Shown here: positions 2,029 to 53,613 of the stretch, piece by piece | How positions within the stretch are numbered: position 1 is the first letter of the stretch | How the letters are laid out: every line of letters starts with the position of its first letter | Notes under the pieces: model-generated | Databases searched by the model: none | What the model was told of the DNA's origin: nothing | The model's input: only the letters and a program-made list of their open reading frames with translations | Program-made: the position numbers and the translations under genes | Source: Shigella phage JK23 | Sequence record: MK962752 | Strand: one strand, 5' to 3' | Length of the DNA stretch: 64,000 nt

Positions 2029-2056
2029 CAAAGGGACCTTTCGGTCCCTTTTTATT
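2029..2056. terminator. bidirectional hairpin terminator between convergent genes 24 and rnlB
   Basis: aagggacc-tttc-ggtccctt hairpin flanked by A/T runs on both sides. Confidence 0.65.
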
Positions 2057-3060
2057 TAACTTACCAATTCAATCCAAGCCGGACGAAGTACATCTTGTAC
2101 CATTTTAACTAATTCCTTTTTAACCAAAGAAGGATTATCTGCTTGAGTTAGAGTAATACCTTCACGAGAAGTTTCTTCCAAAATATCTTGAACAGTTAGT
2201 CCCATCACCTTTCCAAAATCCTTCGTACCAATTTCACCAATTTTAGAAATAACGTTATTTACTCGGTTCAGTGTAACGTAGCAAGCTAAAATTCCCACCA
2301 ATTTGTTATCAGCTTCTGATAGTTCAACTTTAGCTTTAATAGGCTTATCAGACTTTTTCTTTTCACTAAATTTGGAATTCTTGCATTTGATGGCTACACG
2401 ATTTCCATTATGAAGCCAAGAAGGATAACAAGGTTTCAATACATATCCTTCAGCGGTAAATACTTCGCCTTTGGCTTCAGCTTTCCAAACACATTTGTTA
2501 GCGTCAACTAATCCAGCATGGTCTACTGTAAAATTATAATCTTGGACGACAGAATCTAAATCATTTGGCAATTTAATAAGTTCTTCAAATTTACCACGAC
2601 CTAAAAGTGGAGCCATTTTAAATTTAAATGTATTACAAAATGATTCCATCATATAATCATCGACATAAGTCACATCACCACTTTCTGTAGTGACAATAAT
2701 GTCAAATACATAAAAATCTTTATCGCCATAATCGACATTCTTCTGAATGCCAGGTCCAGCGAATTCGCCAAAGACTTGATAAGATACAACCGCTGAGGTT
2801 TCCATAATATCTTGTACTGCTTTAATAGAATCTTCGTAATTCTTTAGAATAATTTCATACCCAAAGAAATCTTCAGCAGGAAGAATCGGTCCAGTACGTT
2901 TAGCGCAAGTTACTTTATCACGCTCAATAATCAATGAGAAATTTGTGCCGTGAATCTTTTCACGAGCTACCCACTCCCCACCAGTCAATCCCAAGCTATA
3001 AAGTTTTTCAATAAATTTAGAGTTGTAATGATTTTCAAGACTGCTATACTTTTTAAACAT
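2056..3060 (-). CDS. rnlB: RNA ligase 2 (Rnl2)
   Basis: 334 aa; near-identical to T4 Rnl2 as remembered, including N-terminal [16 protein letters not shown] and KIHGTN ligase motif I. Confidence 0.92.
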
Positions 3061-3069
3061 AATTAATCC

Positions 3070-3348
3070 TCAAAATGTAATTTCTAACCAATCACCATCA
3101 CGCTGATCACTATTGACTTTAAAGCTGAATCCTTCTTTTCTCAGCCAATCACCAATTTCTTCAGTAATCAATTTATCACGAGCAATACAATAATAACTAA
3201 AATGTGTTTTACCTTGTTCAGCTGCTTTATTAGCAAGTTCCGAAAAATCTTTAATAAAACACTCTAGCTTAAACTGTTTACTTTTAAGTGCTTTTTCGCG
3301 CAATTGATTAGCAAAAGATTCATTTTCATAAAGATCATACTGTTCCAT
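3070..3348 (-). CDS. hypothetical protein (T4 24.2 position)
   Basis: 92-aa ATG ORF in conserved position between rnlB and hoc. Confidence 0.6.
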   Translation of the reverse strand: MEQYDLYENESFANQLREKALKSKQFKLECFIKDFSELANKAAEQGKTHFSYYCIARDKLITEEIGDWLRKEGFSFKVNSDQRDGDWLEITF

Positions 3349-3550
3349 TTTTCACCTTTTTATTGATATGTCTTTTTCTATAGACGACTTTTTCTCGAGT
3401 TTCAAATTTATTTTTAGCAGTCATAGCTCGAGCCCATAATACAGCCACTTCTTTTGCCTGTAAGTTTAATTCACGAGCAATTTCAATGAATGACTTTCCA
3501 GACTCATGAAGAGTAAACACCACAACCTCAGTTCTCATAATCAATCTCAT
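3335..3550 (-). CDS. hypothetical protein (T4 24.3 position)
   Basis: 71-aa ATG ORF overlapping upstream gene by a few codons. Confidence 0.55.
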   Translation of the reverse strand: MRLIMRTEVVVFTLHESGKSFIEIARELNLQAKEVAVLWARAMTAKNKFETREKVVYRKRHINKKVKNGTV

Positions 3551-3639: not shown

Positions 3640-5058
3640 TTATGGATAGGTATAGATGATACCAGTTTCTAAAGCAGTTTTATGAATGATGTATCCATTA
3701 CGCGATTCTTGAACATCAACTTCTGGATAGTCTTTCATCATCTTCTGAAGAGTGTAACGATGTAGGTAATATTTACTATCTGGGTCGTCAGTTTTCCAAT
3801 CTTTACCTTCTTCGGTCATTTTTTGGATTTCATCCATAACCCACCAACCGCACCAGATATAAGCTGAAGTACGATGTGGAAGAGGATGAACATAAGGTAG
3901 TTCACCTTCTGGTTCTGGAGCAACTTTATCAGTTACCTGAACTTGACCTTCTGCTGTAATAGTTTTGCTATCGTAATCAGTTGCAGTAACGACAGCAGTA
4001 ACTTCAATAGTTTGACTTCCAACAGATGAGGTATCGACAGTATATACGTTAGTTGACCCTTCTACAGGAGAAGAATCTTTCTTCCATGAGTAAGTAATTT
4101 GTGCTTCTTCTGGAGCACCCGTAACATTAGCCGTAAATGTAGCCGAAGCATCTTGCTGAACATTAATAGAAGGAGGAGTCAATGTAACCTGTGGATTCAT
4201 TGTCTTCTTATTAACTGTCAATGATACTTCATTAGAAGTAACTTCCTTTTCATTGTAATTTTCAGCAGTTACTTGAGCTACGCATTTAATTCTTTTTACT
4301 CCACTTGTAGTTGGAGTATAGTTAAATGTAGAGTTAGTTTCTCCACCAATTTGTGAATCATCTACATACCACTGATACGTAGCAGACGCTCCATCAGGTT
4401 GAGAAGCTAAGGCAGCAGTAAATTGAACTGGGGTTCCGATTACTCCCGCTGGAGGACTATCAGGAGTTACTGCCAAAGTAGTTGTCTGCGTCTTTTTATT
4501 AACAGTCAGTGACACTTCATTGGAAGTAACTTCCTTTGTATCATAATCTGTCGCGGTTACTTGAGCTACGCACTTAATTGTTTTAACTCCGCTTGCGTCA
4601 GGAGTGTAATTGAATGTAGTGCTAGTTGCTTCGCCCACAGGAGAACCGTCAACGTACCATTGATACGTAGCGTTTGCACCTGATGGCTGTGAAGCTAAGG
4701 CAGCGGTAAATTCAATTGGAGTTCCAATCACTCCAGCATCAGGGCTACCAGGAGTTACTGCCAAAGTAGTTGTTTGTGTCTTATTTTGAACTGTGATAGT
4801 TGTACTAATTTCAGCTGTTTCAGGTTCAGATTCTGCAACTTGATTGGTTGCAACTACTTTAATAGTCTTTTGACCGGCAGGTCCTTTTAGTACATAACTA
4901 AAAGTTGCTGACGTTTCTTCCTGTGGAGCGTCGTCTACAGTCCAAGCATATGTAATAGTTCCGCCTCCAGTTTCACCACTGGGTGTAGCAGTAAACTGCT
5001 TAGTTTCATCAATAACCCCTGTCGGTGTTTTAGGAGTTATATCAACTGTAAAAGTCAT
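3640..5058 (-). CDS. hoc: highly immunogenic outer capsid protein Hoc with four Ig-like domains
   Basis: 472 aa; N-terminus MTFTVDITPKTPTGVIDETKQF and C-terminal capsid-binding domain as in T4 Hoc; two adjacent ~96-aa Ig-like units nearly identical. Confidence 0.9.
   Translation of the reverse strand: MTFTVDITPKTPTGVIDETKQFTATPSGETGGGTITYAWTVDDAPQEETSATFSYVLKGPAGQKTIKVVATNQVAESEPETAEISTTITVQNKTQTTTLAVTPGSPDAGVIGTPIEFTAALASQPSGANATYQWYVDGSPVGEATSTTFNYTPDASGVKTIKCVAQVTATDYDTKEVTSNEVSLTVNKKTQTTTLAVTPDSPPAGVIGTPVQFTAALASQPDGASATYQWYVDDSQIGGETNSTFNYTPTTSGVKRIKCVAQVTAENYNEKEVTSNEVSLTVNKKTMNPQVTLTPPSINVQQDASATFTANVTGAPEEAQITYSWKKDSSPVEGSTNVYTVDTSSVGSQTIEVTAVVTATDYDSKTITAEGQVQVTDKVAPEPEGELPYVHPLPHRTSAYIWCGWWVMDEIQKMTEEGKDWKTDDPDSKYYLHRYTLQKMMKDYPEVDVQESRNGYIIHKTALETGIIYTYP
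4208..4783 (-). repeat. in-frame tandem repeat (2 x 288 bp, diverged copies) inside hoc
   Basis: Unit at 4208-4495 aligns with 4496-4783; encodes duplicated Ig-like domain. Confidence 0.8.
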
Positions 5059-5067
5059 AAGTTATCC

Positions 5068-5748
5068 TTATTTTAATGTTACGAAAGAAGAATTACGTGT
5101 TTCACGAATTAGAACTGATCCGTCACGATTAATGTAGTAAATTAAGCTAAATAAAGTTTGGTGTGCCGACGCATGTTCAAAACTAGTTGGGTGAGATTTC
5201 CAATCTGGGGTTTCAGCAATCCATTGATAAATCCACCAAGGAACAGTGCAGAATCCTGGATTTTTTCCAATCAGCTGAAGATTCGGACTAAAGTTTTCCG
5301 GAAGAGTAAATACAGACGGCTTTTCAGATTCAATAATCTCAGCTACAGCCTGTTCGAATTTTTCTTCAACAAAAGGAGTATCTTCAATTAAAACAGTGGT
5401 ATTTTCAGGAATTTTATCCGTTTCTACTACTTCAATTTTAATGTCAGATTTAACCGGAGAATCAATCAAAAGTGCTGCCTCTGGATTGACTTCTTCATCG
5501 TCATATTTTAATCCGTCTGCGGCATCAGCAGCATCAATTAAGTCTTTAATAGATAACCCATCAGTCTCTGGCATAGGTTCACTAGCGAGCTTCTGGAGAG
5601 CTTCTTCAATATCATTAACGATATTATCAAAAGATTTATTCTTTTTGACCTTTATACCAAACTGTTCAGCATATTCAGCTAATTTAGCTTTAGCTTCTTT
5701 ATTATCATCAAGAGCCTTCAGCTCTGCAATATAATCTTTATCTATCAT
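5068..5748 (-). CDS. inh: inhibitor of prohead protease (Inh)
   Basis: 226-aa acidic ORF immediately downstream of hoc, as in T4. Confidence 0.75.
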   Translation of the reverse strand: MIDKDYIAELKALDDNKEAKAKLAEYAEQFGIKVKKNKSFDNIVNDIEEALQKLASEPMPETDGLSIKDLIDAADAADGLKYDDEEVNPEAALLIDSPVKSDIKIEVVETDKIPENTTVLIEDTPFVEEKFEQAVAEIIESEKPSVFTLPENFSPNLQLIGKNPGFCTVPWWIYQWIAETPDWKSHPTSFEHASAHQTLFSLIYYINRDGSVLIRETRNSSFVTLK

Positions 5749-5761
5749 AATATTTCCTCAG

Positions 5762-5769
5762 TATAAATA
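5762..5769 (+). promoter_or_regulatory. T4-type late promoter (TATAAATA) for uvsW
   Basis: Exact TATAAATA ~30 nt upstream of uvsW ATG. Confidence 0.6.
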
Positions 5770-5798
5770 TAGATATATTTATTACATGGTATTTAGAC

Positions 5799-7310
5799 AT
5801 GACTGACATTAAAGTACATTTTTATGATTTTAGTCACGTGAGAATTGATTGCGAAGAAAGTACATTTCATGAACTCCGTGATTTCTTTAGCTTTGAAGCT
5901 GATGGGTATCGTTTTAATCCGAAGTACAAATATGGCCACTGGGATGGACGAATTCGTCTTTTAGATTATAATCGCCTTCTTCCATTCGGTTTAGTCGGGC
6001 AAATTAAAAAGTTCTGCGATAACTTTGGCTATAAAGCCTGGATTGACCCACAGATTAACGAAAAAGAAGAATTATCAAGAAAAGATTTTGATGAATGGCT
6101 TTCTAAATTAGAAATCTATTCAGGAAATAAAAGAATTGAACCGCATTGGTATCAAAAAGATGCAGTGTTCGAAGGATTAGTTAATCGTCGTAGAATTCTT
6201 AATCTTCCAACATCCGCAGGTAAATCTTTAATTCAAGCTTTGCTTGCTCGGTATTATTTGGAAAATTATGAAGGCAAAATTCTTATCATTGTTCCAACAA
6301 CTGCTCTAACAACTCAGATGGCTGATGACTTCGTTGACTATCGTTTATTCAGTCATGCAATGATAAAGAAAATTGGTGGCGGAGCATCAAAAGATGATAA
6401 ATATAAAAATGATGCACCAGTCGTTGTTGGTACATGGCAAACTGTAGTAAAACAACCGAAAGAATGGTTCTCACAGTTTGGAATGATGATGAATGATGAA
6501 TGCCATCTTGCTACAGGAAAAAGTATTTCATCTATCATATCAGGTTTAAATAACTGCATGTTCAAATTTGGTCTATCTGGTTCATTACGTGATGGCAAAG
6601 CCAATATCATGCAGTATGTTGGAATGTTTGGTGAAATATTTAAGCCAGTAACGACTTCTAAGTTAATGGAAGATGGACAAGTAACTGAGCTAAAAATTAA
6701 TAGTATTTTTCTTCGCTATCCCGATGAGTTCACTACTAAATTAAAGGGAAAAACTTATCAAGAAGAAATAAAAATTATTACGGGGCTTAGTAAAAGAAAT
6801 AAATGGATCGCTAAATTGGCTATTAAGCTTGCACAAAAAGATGAAAACGCTTTTGTCATGTTTAAACATGTATCACATGGTAAAGCTATTTTCGATTTAA
6901 TTAAAAATGAATACGATAAAGTTTATTACGTATCAGGGGAAGTTGATACCGAAACCCGCAATATAATGAAAACCTTAGCTGAAAATGGTAAAGGAATAAT
7001 TATAGTAGCTAGTTATGGTGTATTTTCTACTGGTATTTCAGTTAAAAATCTGCATCACGTTGTTTTAGCACACGGTGTTAAATCTAAAATTATTGTATTG
7101 CAAACAATAGGTCGCGTATTACGTAAACATGGTTCTAAAACAATCGCAACAGTCTGGGACCTCATAGATGACTGTGGTGTCAAGCCAAAATCTGCTAATA
7201 CTAAAAAGAAATATGTTCACTTGAACTATCTTTTAAAACACGGCATTGATCGTATTCAGCGCTACGCAGATGAAAAATTTAATTACGTAATGAAAACAGT
7301 TAATTTATAA
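5799..7310 (+). CDS. uvsW: UvsW RNA-DNA and DNA-DNA helicase
   Basis: 503 aa; SF2 helicase motifs (PTSAGKS Walker A, DECH box); matches T4 UvsW. Confidence 0.92.
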   Translation: MTDIKVHFYDFSHVRIDCEESTFHELRDFFSFEADGYRFNPKYKYGHWDGRIRLLDYNRLLPFGLVGQIKKFCDNFGYKAWIDPQINEKEELSRKDFDEWLSKLEIYSGNKRIEPHWYQKDAVFEGLVNRRRILNLPTSAGKSLIQALLARYYLENYEGKILIIVPTTALTTQMADDFVDYRLFSHAMIKKIGGGASKDDKYKNDAPVVVGTWQTVVKQPKEWFSQFGMMMNDECHLATGKSISSIISGLNNCMFKFGLSGSLRDGKANIMQYVGMFGEIFKPVTTSKLMEDGQVTELKINSIFLRYPDEFTTKLKGKTYQEEIKIITGLSKRNKWIAKLAIKLAQKDENAFVMFKHVSHGKAIFDLIKNEYDKVYYVSGEVDTETRNIMKTLAENGKGIIIVASYGVFSTGISVKNLHHVVLAHGVKSKIIVLQTIGRVLRKHGSKTIATVWDLIDDCGVKPKSANTKKKYVHLNYLLKHGIDRIQRYADEKFNYVMKTVNL

Positions 7311-50441: not shown

Positions 50442-52361
50442 ATGGCTACTTTAAAACAAATACAATTTAAAAGAAGCAAAACTGCAGGTCAACGTCCTGC
50501 TGCTTCAGTATTAGCCGAAGGTGAATTGGCTATAAACTTAAAAGATAAAACAATTTTCACAAAAGATGACTCAGGTAGTGTTATAGAATTAGGTTTAAAA
50601 TATGGAGGAACAATTGATGGTTCTTTAACTGTTAATGGAAATATAATTGGAAATTTAACAGGTAACGCTGCAACTGCAACGAAATTAAAAACAGCACGAA
50701 AAATTAATGGTATATCCTTTGATGGGTCAAAGGATATCACGCTAACTCCATCTGACATAAATGTCAATAGCACAACATTTATAAAAAATAATGGCGAATT
50801 ACCTGTTGATGCTAATTTAGATGAGTATGGGCCTGTTGAAGAATATCTTGGTGTTTGGTCGAAAGCAACTTCAACCAACGCTCAACCAGCAAATAAATTT
50901 CCAGAAGAAAATGCTGTAGGTGTGCTAGAAGTATTTGTGGCCGGTCAATTTGCTGGTACTCAGAGATATACAACTAGATACGGAAATGTTTATATTCGTT
51001 CCTTGACTGCTACATGGAACGGAGTAAATGGTCCGTGGAGTGTGTGGCGAAATATTCAATCCGGTACTCGTCCACTGTCAACAACAATTGATCTTAATGA
51101 TCTAGGAGGCGCTGAACACTTTGGTTTGTGGCGAAATAGTTCAAATTCCATTGCTACCTTTGACAGAAATTTCCCAGAAGAGGGGTCGTCAGCTCAAGGT
51201 CTTTTGGAAGTATATGAAGGTGGAAACTATTCTCGTACACAAAGATATACAACCAGATTTGGTGTTGTATATACTCGTTGTCTTGCTGCCGCGTGGGATG
51301 CTTCCGCGCCTAAATGGGGACCGTGGCAACAAGTCGGTAATGTCACACCAGCGACTTTCTATGACGGAGATCTGAATGATTTTAAAACCCCTGGGTTATA
51401 TAATATTTTAGGCACTGATGCCGTTATTAACTGTCCTACAGGTGAAGGTTTGCCGACTGTTATTGTTGGTTTGCTGGAAGTTAAACAACGTGCTTCTGGC
51501 GGTGCTATTTTCCAAAAATTTACTACTGCCGGAACGGGTGCAACTACTCGCGATCGTATTTTTGAGCGTGCATATACTGGTGGTGTGTGGGGTGCATGGA
51601 ACGAAGTATATACATCTTACTCTCTGCCAATTACTTTAGGTATGGGTGGTATTAAAACTCAATTAGCGGAGCTAGATTGGCAAACATTTGATTTTGTTCC
51701 TGGTAGTATGTTTAGCGTTCCTTTGAACAAAATAAAGAACATGCCAGCTAATATGAATTGGGGCACGATTGACGGAAACTTAATTATGTTTTCTGTTGGT
51801 CCTAGCGAGCACACCAGCACAGGACGTACTGTTCAGGTTTGGCGTGGAACTGTATCCCAGACAAACTATCGTTATTTTGTCGTTCGTGTGTTCGGTAATT
51901 CTGGAAATAGAACTTGCACAGTTCGCCGTGTTGTTCTTGAAGACGGATCACATACTTGGACTGCTCAACAAAACTTTAGGGGATTGCTGAATATCACTGC
52001 TGCTGTTAATCTTGGTGCTAATCAGAAAATTTCACTTGCTCCAGGAGCATATATTCAAGCCCCTGCTAGCGGTTCTGGTTCTAATACTTACGCAAATCAG
52101 AATACTACCATTGCGCCATTATATCAGGCTATTGACGATTCAAATAAAAACCAGTTTGCGCCAATTGTTAAACAGAAAAATACTGTAAGTAATATCACCT
52201 TTGCCACTGGTATGGCTATAGGTACATCCGAATATAAGATCATTGCTCAGGGTGATTTATCCGCTGATGGAACAGCAGATGGGTTAAAACAGTGGACTTT
52301 CATGCCGTCAGGTTATTTTAAATCTCCAGGGCGTGTATATGTCATTATATCAGGCTATTGA
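50442..52361 (+). CDS. 37: long tail fiber distal subunit gp37, 5' part; frame broken by a 226-bp tandem duplication
   Basis: N-terminus [13 protein letters not shown] as in T-even gp37; frame ends at TGA 52359-52361 inside the second repeat copy. Confidence 0.75.
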
Positions 52362-52569
52362 CGATTCAAATAAAAACCAGTTTGCGCCAATTGTTAAACA
52401 GAAAAATACTGTAAGTAATATCACCTTTGCCACTGGTATGGCTATAGGTACATCCGAATATAAGATCATTGCTCAGGGTGATTTATCCGCTGATGGAACA
52501 GCAGATGGGTTAAAACAGTGGACTTTCATGCCGTCAGGTTATTTTAAATCTCCAGGGCGTGTATATGTC
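52118..52569 (+). repeat. perfect direct tandem duplication, 2 x 226 bp, inside gene 37
   Basis: 52118-52343 is identical to 52344-52569; 226 is not divisible by 3. Confidence 0.9.
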
Positions 52570-53613
52570 GGTGATGCGTTCCTTAATACAGATGGTAATA
52601 TTGCCGGTTCAATCTGGAAGAAATATAACAATGCGACAAATTTAGATGCTGCCTTGAATACTCGCGTAGGTAAAGGCGGTGATACGATGACAGGTCGGTT
52701 AACAATCAATGCACCTAATGATTCTATTGTATTATCAACGACTGCTAGTAATTCTTTGCATATTCGTGGTGACATAGACGGGACTGGTAACTGGTATATT
52801 GGTAAGGGTGGTGCTGATAATTCGCTAGCATTTTATAGCTATGCTTCTCAGGCGGCAGTACATATCACAAACAATGGTGAGATTGCGTTAAACCCGCAAA
52901 ATACCGCAATGGTTAACGTTAACCGTGACCGTGTACACATTAACGGTTCTGGATGGATTGCTAGACAACCGGGTGATTGGGGCAACCAATGGCGAGTAGA
53001 AGCTCCATTATTCGTTGATCATGGTTATGTTTCACAGGATTGTTATTATCCTATTCTTAAAGCAAGAAGCGTTATAACCAATCAAGGATATAGCACCGCT
53101 GTTGACTTTGGTATGCGTCGTATTCCATCACAGTGGGGGCAAGCAATCATTCGTGTCGGATCCACGGAGGCTTCTCCTGATGCTGGACACCCACAAGCTA
53201 TATTTGAATTCCATCATGATGGATTCTTTTATACACCAGGAAATGGTAGCTTTAGCGATGTGTATATTCGTTCTGACTCCCGTCTCAAGATTAATAAAGA
53301 AGAATTAGAATATGGAGCGGTCGAAAAAGTTTGCCGACTGAAAGTTTATATTTACGATAAAGTTAAGTCTATTAAAGACCGTAGTGTTATTAAACGTGAA
53401 GTTGGTATTATTGCTCAGGACCTTGAAAAGGAATTACCGGAAGCTGTATCTAAAGTTGAAGTTGATGGATCTGATGTTCTGACAATTTCTAACTCTGCTG
53501 TGAATGCTCTTTTAATTAAGGCTATTCAGGAAATGAGTGAAGAAATTAAAGAATTGAAAACGCCTCTCTTTACTAAAATTGCTCGCAAAATTAGTAAATA
53601 TTTTAAATTCTAA
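52333..53613 (+). CDS. 37: long tail fiber distal subunit gp37, 3' part (in frame only downstream of the duplication)
   Basis: Track ORF (GTG start) resumes gp37 frame; C-terminal domain carries an SDxRxK motif like intramolecular-chaperone autoproteolysis sites. Confidence 0.65.

Follow-up and report, generated by a model that had tools for sequence, protein, structure and literature searches.

The hoc gene in the window, by which we mean the whole stretch of 64,000 nucleotides from Shigella phage JK23 (record MK962752) that was analysed, contains an in-frame tandem repeat of its second Ig-like domain (D2). The repeat is probably one state, with two units, of an old D2 array which is polymorphic among the T4-like coliphages and the copy number of which is changed by unequal recombination. 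The three-Ig Hoc of T4 would then be, as judged by the relation between the units, the one-unit (B-type) state of a polymorphism with one, two or three units.

The open reading frame at positions 3640-5058 can be identified from its sequence as a Hoc of T4 type. The T4 Hoc chain 5vf3_Z (376 aa) aligns with its product in two pieces (HMMER), where query residues 1-114 match T4 residues 1-114 and query residues 189-472 match T4 residues 93-376. From this follows that the window Hoc has exactly one extra unit of 96 aa. The original prediction had put the protein at 472 aa against 376 aa in T4 and had proposed an extra Ig-like domain relative to T4; the length is borne out by the alignment and by the open reading frame, the product of which is one unit longer than T4 Hoc, and the hoc genes of T2 and T6 are also of single-unit length. 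Pfam gives a PKD match (8.8e-12) together with matches to Ig_2, Ig_3 and I-set. The gene order uvsW - inh - hoc - 24.3 - 24.2 - rnlB, read by comparing the open reading frames of the window with the T4 locus annotation and Pfam labels, keeps hoc in its T4 position. When the window Hoc is compared with T4 Hoc (PDB 5vf3 chain Z, 8t1x and 8t9r), domains D1, D3 and D4 are 88-97% identical at the nucleotide level, and the difference lies in D2, of which T4 Hoc has one unit, making three Ig-like domains, and the window Hoc two units, making four. The capsid-binding domain is nearly unchanged (query 377-472 on T4 281-376; 271 of 279 nucleotides identical, dN 0.005), and from this near identity each gp23 hexamer of the mature capsid would be expected to carry a single Hoc monomer at its centre. 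The positions of the gene, its parts and its neighbours are collected in the table below. A homing-endonuclease gene is situated between uvsW and inh in T4 and ESCO58 (L001 144-761; L006 144-761); the window (5749-5798), APTC-EC-2A and the Logan contig are without it, and there uvsW abuts inh.

Features of the hoc locus in the window (nucleotide positions of the whole stretch)
Feature	Position	Strand	Remarks
hoc gene, 472 codons + stop	3640..5058	minus	T4 Hoc 5vf3_Z match, E=5e-222; Pfam PKD, Ig_2, Ig_3, I-set
Ig-like domain 1 (D1), aa 1-92	4783..5058	minus	aligns to T4 Hoc residues 1-92; beta strands, pLDDT about 90
Repeat copy A, first Ig-like domain 2 (D2), aa 93-188	4495..4782	minus	unit absent from T4
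Repeat copy B, second Ig-like domain 2 (D2), aa 189-284	4207..4494	minus	orthologue of T4 Hoc domain 2
Ig-like domain 3 (D3), aa 285-380	3919..4206	minus	aligns to T4 Hoc about 189-284; Pfam Ig_3 / I-set at 289-373; pLDDT about 90
C-terminal capsid-binding domain (D4), aa 381-472, + stop codon	3640..3918	minus	near-identical to T4 Hoc 285-376
25-nt stretch in the head of copy A (unit nt 10-34)	4749..4773	minus	identical in copy B; inferred crossover site
25-nt stretch in the head of copy B, same letters as in the head of copy A	4461..4485	minus	identity between copies
inh	5068-5748	minus	hoc neighbour, as in T4
uvsW	5799-7310	plus	hoc neighbour, as in T4
24.3 / 24.2 / rnlB homologues	2056-3550	minus	hoc neighbours, as in T4

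With Tandem Repeats Finder one array is obtained, at 4202-4782 (period 288, 2.0 copies, 78% matches, score 715), and an ungapped repeat search pairs 4202-4489 with 4490-4777 at 77% identity. When the copies are set in codon phase, as in the table, the reading frame is kept through both, and copies A and B are identical in 222 of 288 nucleotides and 76 of 96 amino acids. The 66 nucleotide differences are distributed over the three codon positions as 14, 13 and 39, so that 39 of them are in third positions. The level expected by chance at an offset of 288 was obtained by shuffling the codons of hoc, which gave 100 +/- 6 matches with a maximum of 121 in 1000 shuffles, and elsewhere in the 64-kb window the same offset never gives more than 110 matches. 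Since the number of matches between the copies is far above both levels, the repeat is real. The repeated unit extends from the linker motif KTQTTTLAVTP to SLTVNK and is precisely Ig domain 2. The D2 units also have 35-37% identity with D1 and D3 (37% with D1), so that the whole of Hoc has arisen through earlier duplications of this sort. The original prediction had placed two adjacent, near-identical 96-aa Ig-like domains, generated by an in-frame 288-bp tandem repeat, at 4208-4495 and 4496-4783, which is right to within one nucleotide of the codon-phase copies, and had described the copies as diverged with the frame kept, in agreement with their 66 differences and a dN/dS of 0.15.

The age of the repeat can be judged by comparing the synonymous divergence of its copies with that of the other Hoc domains. 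Copies A and B of the window have a dS of 0.95 and a dN of 0.14, and when the window is set against T4 the values of dS are 0.21 in D1, 0.22 in D3 and 0.14 in D4. The synonymous divergence of the two neighbouring copies is, in other words, four to five times that of the window and T4 in the rest of Hoc, and copies A and B would on this measure have split long before the window phage and T4 parted. When the copies are compared one by one with the D2 units of other phages, copy B of the window has 89% nucleotide identity with T4 D2 (dS 0.29) and copy A has 78% (dS 0.89). Copy A is instead 91% identical to the sole D2 of Yersinia phage PYPS2T (dS 0.17) and also 91% identical to unit 1 of the 568-aa Hoc (dS 0.17). 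Copy B is thus the orthologue of T4 D2, and copy A the orthologue of the D2 of PYPS2T and of unit 1 of the 568-aa Hoc.

A regular order of the units is seen when 159 D2 units from 115 proteins, i.e., the window Hoc and 114 database proteins, are clustered. Type A is in the first position of 36 of the 37 multi-unit proteins, type B is usually second, and type C is last in the three-unit forms, which have 568 aa and the order A-B-C. The sole units of 376-aa Hocs are of type A in 42, of type B in 28 and of type C in 7 of 78 clusters, with the reservation that the three classes are blurred by mosaicism and have only 3 strictly diagnostic amino-acid positions. The D2 unit of T4 is itself mainly of B-type with A-like patches, and when the units of single-copy Hocs are painted at the protein level, chimeras in both directions occur with no consistent pattern of A-head and B-tail. 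From the mosaicism of the units follows that a history consisting of an ancestral array plus losses is a simplification.

The two-unit arrangement is shared with many other phages. Altogether, the hoc gene of the window matches 678 phage records. A BLAST census centred on the junction was rejected as a way of counting the forms, since BLAST joins non-colinear pieces and one- and two-copy genes are inseparable in its summary counts. The frequencies of the different lengths were instead estimated from two samples, each of about 50 records picked at regular intervals of rank and together less than a full census. Among 96 distinct classifiable records, 32 have the 1419-bp two-unit gene, 61 the 1131-bp T4-like gene, 1 a gene of approximately three units and 2 a gene of 852 bp. 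The two-unit hoc is accordingly present in about a third of the sampled Hoc-matching phage records, where it should be kept in mind that GenBank isolates are a biased sample of nature. In the top 120 clusters of a collection of 5.8 billion proteins the counts are 78 for 376 aa, 29 for 472 aa and 7 for 568 aa, and about 200 other GenBank records have a 472-aa Hoc, under the names 'PKD domain protein' or 'Hoc-like head decoration'. Degenerate junction patterns retrieved four contigs with this type of hoc from IMG/VR, one of the four with a unit-unit junction, and so few contigs give no usable frequency.

An identity of 99% or more with the window hoc is found in eight records, among them G4498, G9062, PYps5T, UAB_60 and Ptacy1496, and in these five the same 1419-bp gene is matched in one colinear piece with 99.7-99.8% identity. 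The Hocs of Escherichia phages vB_EcoM_G4498 and G9062, Yersinia phage PYps5T and Salmonella phage UAB_60 have the same length and the same A-B arrangement as that of the window, and differ from it in nothing essential. Read as a domain expansion peculiar to this lineage, the original prediction fails here, as close relatives with four Ig-like domains in the same arrangement are at hand, which is the very observation that it had named as its refutation. The window phage is nevertheless a distinct Tequatrovirus mosaic, with a best match of 97.5-97.6% over the 25 kb beside hoc.

Among close relatives the sizes of Hoc form a series of 283, 376, 472 and 568 aa. The two 852-bp matches, OR757453 (BYEP01) and OR352943 (AV113), have a length equal to that of the two-Ig, 283-aa Hoc of PhiPNJ-9. 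Phage moskry (MN850651; L002 625-1157), in which the depositors marked a repeat_region inside hoc, is classed as a Mosigvirus yet carries a Tequatrovirus-like A-B hoc with 90% identity, which suggests that hoc may be exchanged across genus boundaries. The records MK327940 (G29), MZ501066 (FriedrichMiescher), PP418986 (UPWr_E2), AP018813 (T2) and AP018814 (T6) either divide hoc into two or three CDS fragments or give it an unusual length (1474 bp, 1418 bp). This points to frameshifts or small indels, which may stem from errors in sequencing or from a true loss of function in a gene that is not essential. The 32-kb record MG010123, 'Staphylococcus phage SAJK-IND', holds a two-copy T4-type hoc that is 93% identical to that of the window, and with its Staphylococcus host label looks like a mislabelled or contaminated record. 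Hocs of 472 and 568 aa are also found under bacterial names in NCBI, such as a Shigella sonnei 'endonuclease' and an E. coli 'PKD domain-containing protein' (clusters P0014, P0021, P0006 and others), from which follows that T4-like phage contigs are present within bacterial assemblies, with the protein misnamed in one case.

Proteins with one, two and three D2 units often share D1, D3 and D4 with 99-100% identity, and such near-isogenic pairs reveal how the number of units may change. To exemplify, consider ESCO58 and APTC-EC-2A, the latter assigned to one species with G4498; both have a single unit. In comparison with the window, D1 is identical in 275-276 of 276 nucleotides, D3 in 288 of 288 and D4 in 279 of 279, and of the 1200 nucleotides downstream 1200 are identical in APTC-EC-2A and 1190 in ESCO58. 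Their single unit is chimeric: of the 66 sites where A and B differ, the first two (unit nt 6 and 9) are of A-type, and 63 of the remaining 64 are of B-type. The longest run of identity between copies A and B, 25 nt, is found at unit nt 10-34. Since the switch from A to B falls between unit nt 9 and 35, the crossover must lie inside this run. Duplication of a chimera, on the other hand, cannot generate two copies that differ at 66 sites, so that the direction of the change is from the A-B allele to one unit. The unit of APTC-EC-2A and ESCO58 thus reads as a direct footprint of the in-register collapse of an allele of the window type. An A-only unit is seen in the metagenomic contig SRR11808719_21, where the rest of hoc and the 1200 nucleotides downstream show no difference from the window. 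Here only about 5 nucleotides (AAGAC) beyond the end of the unit are shared at the junction, and for this reason the A-only contig is weaker evidence than the B-type chimera. The D2 array is not stable, with near-isogenic relatives back at one unit, and the description of the repeat in the original prediction as a fixed domain expansion has to be given up.

These observations can be confronted with other accounts of how the two copies came about. If a T4-like three-Ig Hoc had undergone a 288-bp duplication in the window phage's own lineage, and the copies had then diverged in place and become fixed, one would understand why they are adjacent, of equal length and in frame, and why T4, T2 and T6 carry one unit. 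Yet the copies would in that case be expected to be each other's closest relatives, and the dS of 0.95 between them, several times that between window and T4 in the rest of hoc, together with the closer kinship of B to T4 and of A to PYPS2T than of either to its neighbour, makes such a private origin very improbable. The A-B arrangement is moreover common to about a third of the related records and includes moskry, a Mosigvirus, and it has not become fixed, given the collapsed near-isogenic relatives. A tandem duplication private to the lineage was accordingly rejected. To an erroneously duplicated segment in hoc, introduced by sequencing or assembly, we give practically no probability. A perfect 226-bp repeat in the same window could be such an artefact, but the copies in hoc differ at 66 of 288 positions with the frame kept and under purifying selection, and the same gene recurs in dozens of independent genome assemblies and in metagenomic contigs; the 66 differences and the many independent assemblies rule it out for the hoc repeat.

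Another possibility is that the single unit is ancestral, and that A, B and C are old alleles of one D2 which were joined later by unequal or illegitimate recombination at co-infection. Single-copy Hocs of A-, B- and C-type are all common, T4-like phages recombine heavily and their D2 units are mosaic, and the high divergence of neighbouring copies would be accounted for at once. The joining of an A-only with a B-only gene, however, requires that 'A tail / D3 head' recombine with 'D1 tail / B head', which have only few nucleotides in common, whereas collapse of the array through identical runs of 15-25 nt is directly documented. The near-invariant order A, B, C also fits the origin of a single array better than repeated assembly. 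From the near absence of homology for joining and the near-invariant order of the units follows that an old array with recurrent losses is favoured, and an ancestral single unit appears unlikely, if less so than a private duplication. It differs from the main explanation just in the direction of the first event, and the identity of the locus is the same in both.

According to the explanation that we prefer, the old and polymorphic D2 array, A and B are long-diverged paralogues, and purifying selection preserves both as functional Ig domains. The array occurs in three states in T4-like coliphages, namely 376 aa with a single unit (T4, T2, T6), 472 aa with two and 568 aa with three (A-B-C). The number of units would shift by in-register unequal homologous recombination or slippage, most readily in the conserved heads and tails of the units, so that the array may collapse and presumably also expand through unequal recombination. 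In addition, whole hoc alleles may be exchanged at co-infection, when ordinary recombination takes place in the domains on either side of the array.

An AlphaFold2 model of the window Hoc, built with 46 homologues, has four beta-sandwich domains, with pLDDT around 90 for residues 1-380, before the capsid-binding domain is reached, and together with the Pfam PKD and Ig families it supports the Ig-like domains expected beforehand. The C-terminal domain is modelled poorly (pLDDT <60), and its T4 counterpart is solved in 5vf3 and 8t1x. The top Foldseek matches in the PDB are ectodomains with four Ig domains, the N-terminal four Ig domains of Dscam1 and D1-D4 of ICAM-5, with E about 1e-12. When the differences between the copies are placed on the model, 15 of the 20 residues in which A and B differ are outside the beta strands, and over all D2 units the variable sites are enriched outside the strands (odds ratio 3.3, p=0.02). 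In terms of the predicted structure, the core fold of D2 would be conserved while the loops differ, and the dN/dS of 0.15 between copies A and B shows that they are under purifying selection.

T4 Hoc is described as a fibre of 180 A with four domains, and for the Hocs of T4, PhiPNJ-6 and PhiPNJ-9 it has been documented that the Ig domains adhere weakly to mucin glycans or to the surface of bacteria (PMC9271167, PMC11853027, PMC10385173). By analogy, the fibre formed by the 472-aa Hoc is predicted to be one Ig domain longer, i.e., by roughly 45 A or about a quarter, and a second D2 surface with differing loops would alter how far the weak adhesion reaches, its valency or its specificity. It is conceivable, although we regard it as unlikely, that D2 is a cassette system, in which A, B and C, diverged in their loops and with different ligand preferences, are reshuffled at conserved boundaries (A, B, C, A-B, A-C, A-B-C) and kept by balancing selection. 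Such cassettes would be compatible with the age of the units, the purifying selection, the loop variation and the recent changes in copy number on identical backgrounds. If they exist, then fibre length, valency and glycan specificity would be a rapidly switchable trait and not a neutral length polymorphism.

The number of Ig-like domains in Hoc is already known to vary (PMC10385173), and an "additional Ig-like domain" has been published (PMC13435897 on PMBT63). Fokine et al. (2023) described strings of Ig-like domains in variable number, up to ten, among 650 Hoc homologues, and the Hoc of Serratia phage Muldoon has 10 Ig domains in 1174 aa (PMC10385173), while that of PhiPNJ-9 has one domain missing, leaving two Ig domains and 283 aa (PMC11853027). 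The latter two Hocs differ from that of the window in having other domain numbers and other domains affected, and their published descriptions are without an analysis of D2 copy number or mechanism. The Hoc-like protein of Klebsiella phage PMBT63 (PMC13435897, 2026) belongs to a different genus and is only 46% identical to T4 Hoc; it likewise has an extra domain. The arrays of BACON domains in crAss-like phages (PMC6949934) are tandem domains of carbohydrate-binding type in a structural protein, and are treated as an evolutionary hotspot; they are an analogy only, in that their fold and protein are unrelated to Hoc. A variable Ig count in Hoc is accordingly an already known kind of finding, and the 472-aa protein is public many times over. 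In the papers searched, where 'Hoc' collides with 'post hoc', no explicit account was found of the 472-aa Tequatrovirus Hoc, the duplication of D2, the 1-2-3-unit polymorphism or the collapse footprint, and the latter two may be a small addition to the literature. As a discovery this is modest, in that the sequences are public, the repeat is annotated in one record and variable Ig number is in the literature.

Hoc underlies the model of 'bacteriophage adherence to mucus' and is a main scaffold for surface display on T4. That a third of the sampled relatives have a four-Ig Hoc matters when adhesion results obtained with T4 are generalised, and the number of units matters in the choice of therapeutic T4-like phages or display scaffolds. 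Nature offers a near-isogenic set, with G4498 or the window phage as A-B, APTC-EC-2A or ESCO58 as B-only and the metagenomic variant as A-only, which is ready for testing the effect of the extra Ig domain.

The other repeat in the window is a perfect tandem duplication on the plus strand at 52117-52569, with a unit of 226 bp, 2.0 copies and 100% matches. Its unit length is not a multiple of three, and it sits where a long open reading frame breaks into 50442..52361 and 52333..53613. It could be either a genuine frameshifting duplication or an artefact of assembly, and is presumably the 'gene 37 duplication' that was mentioned with the original prediction.
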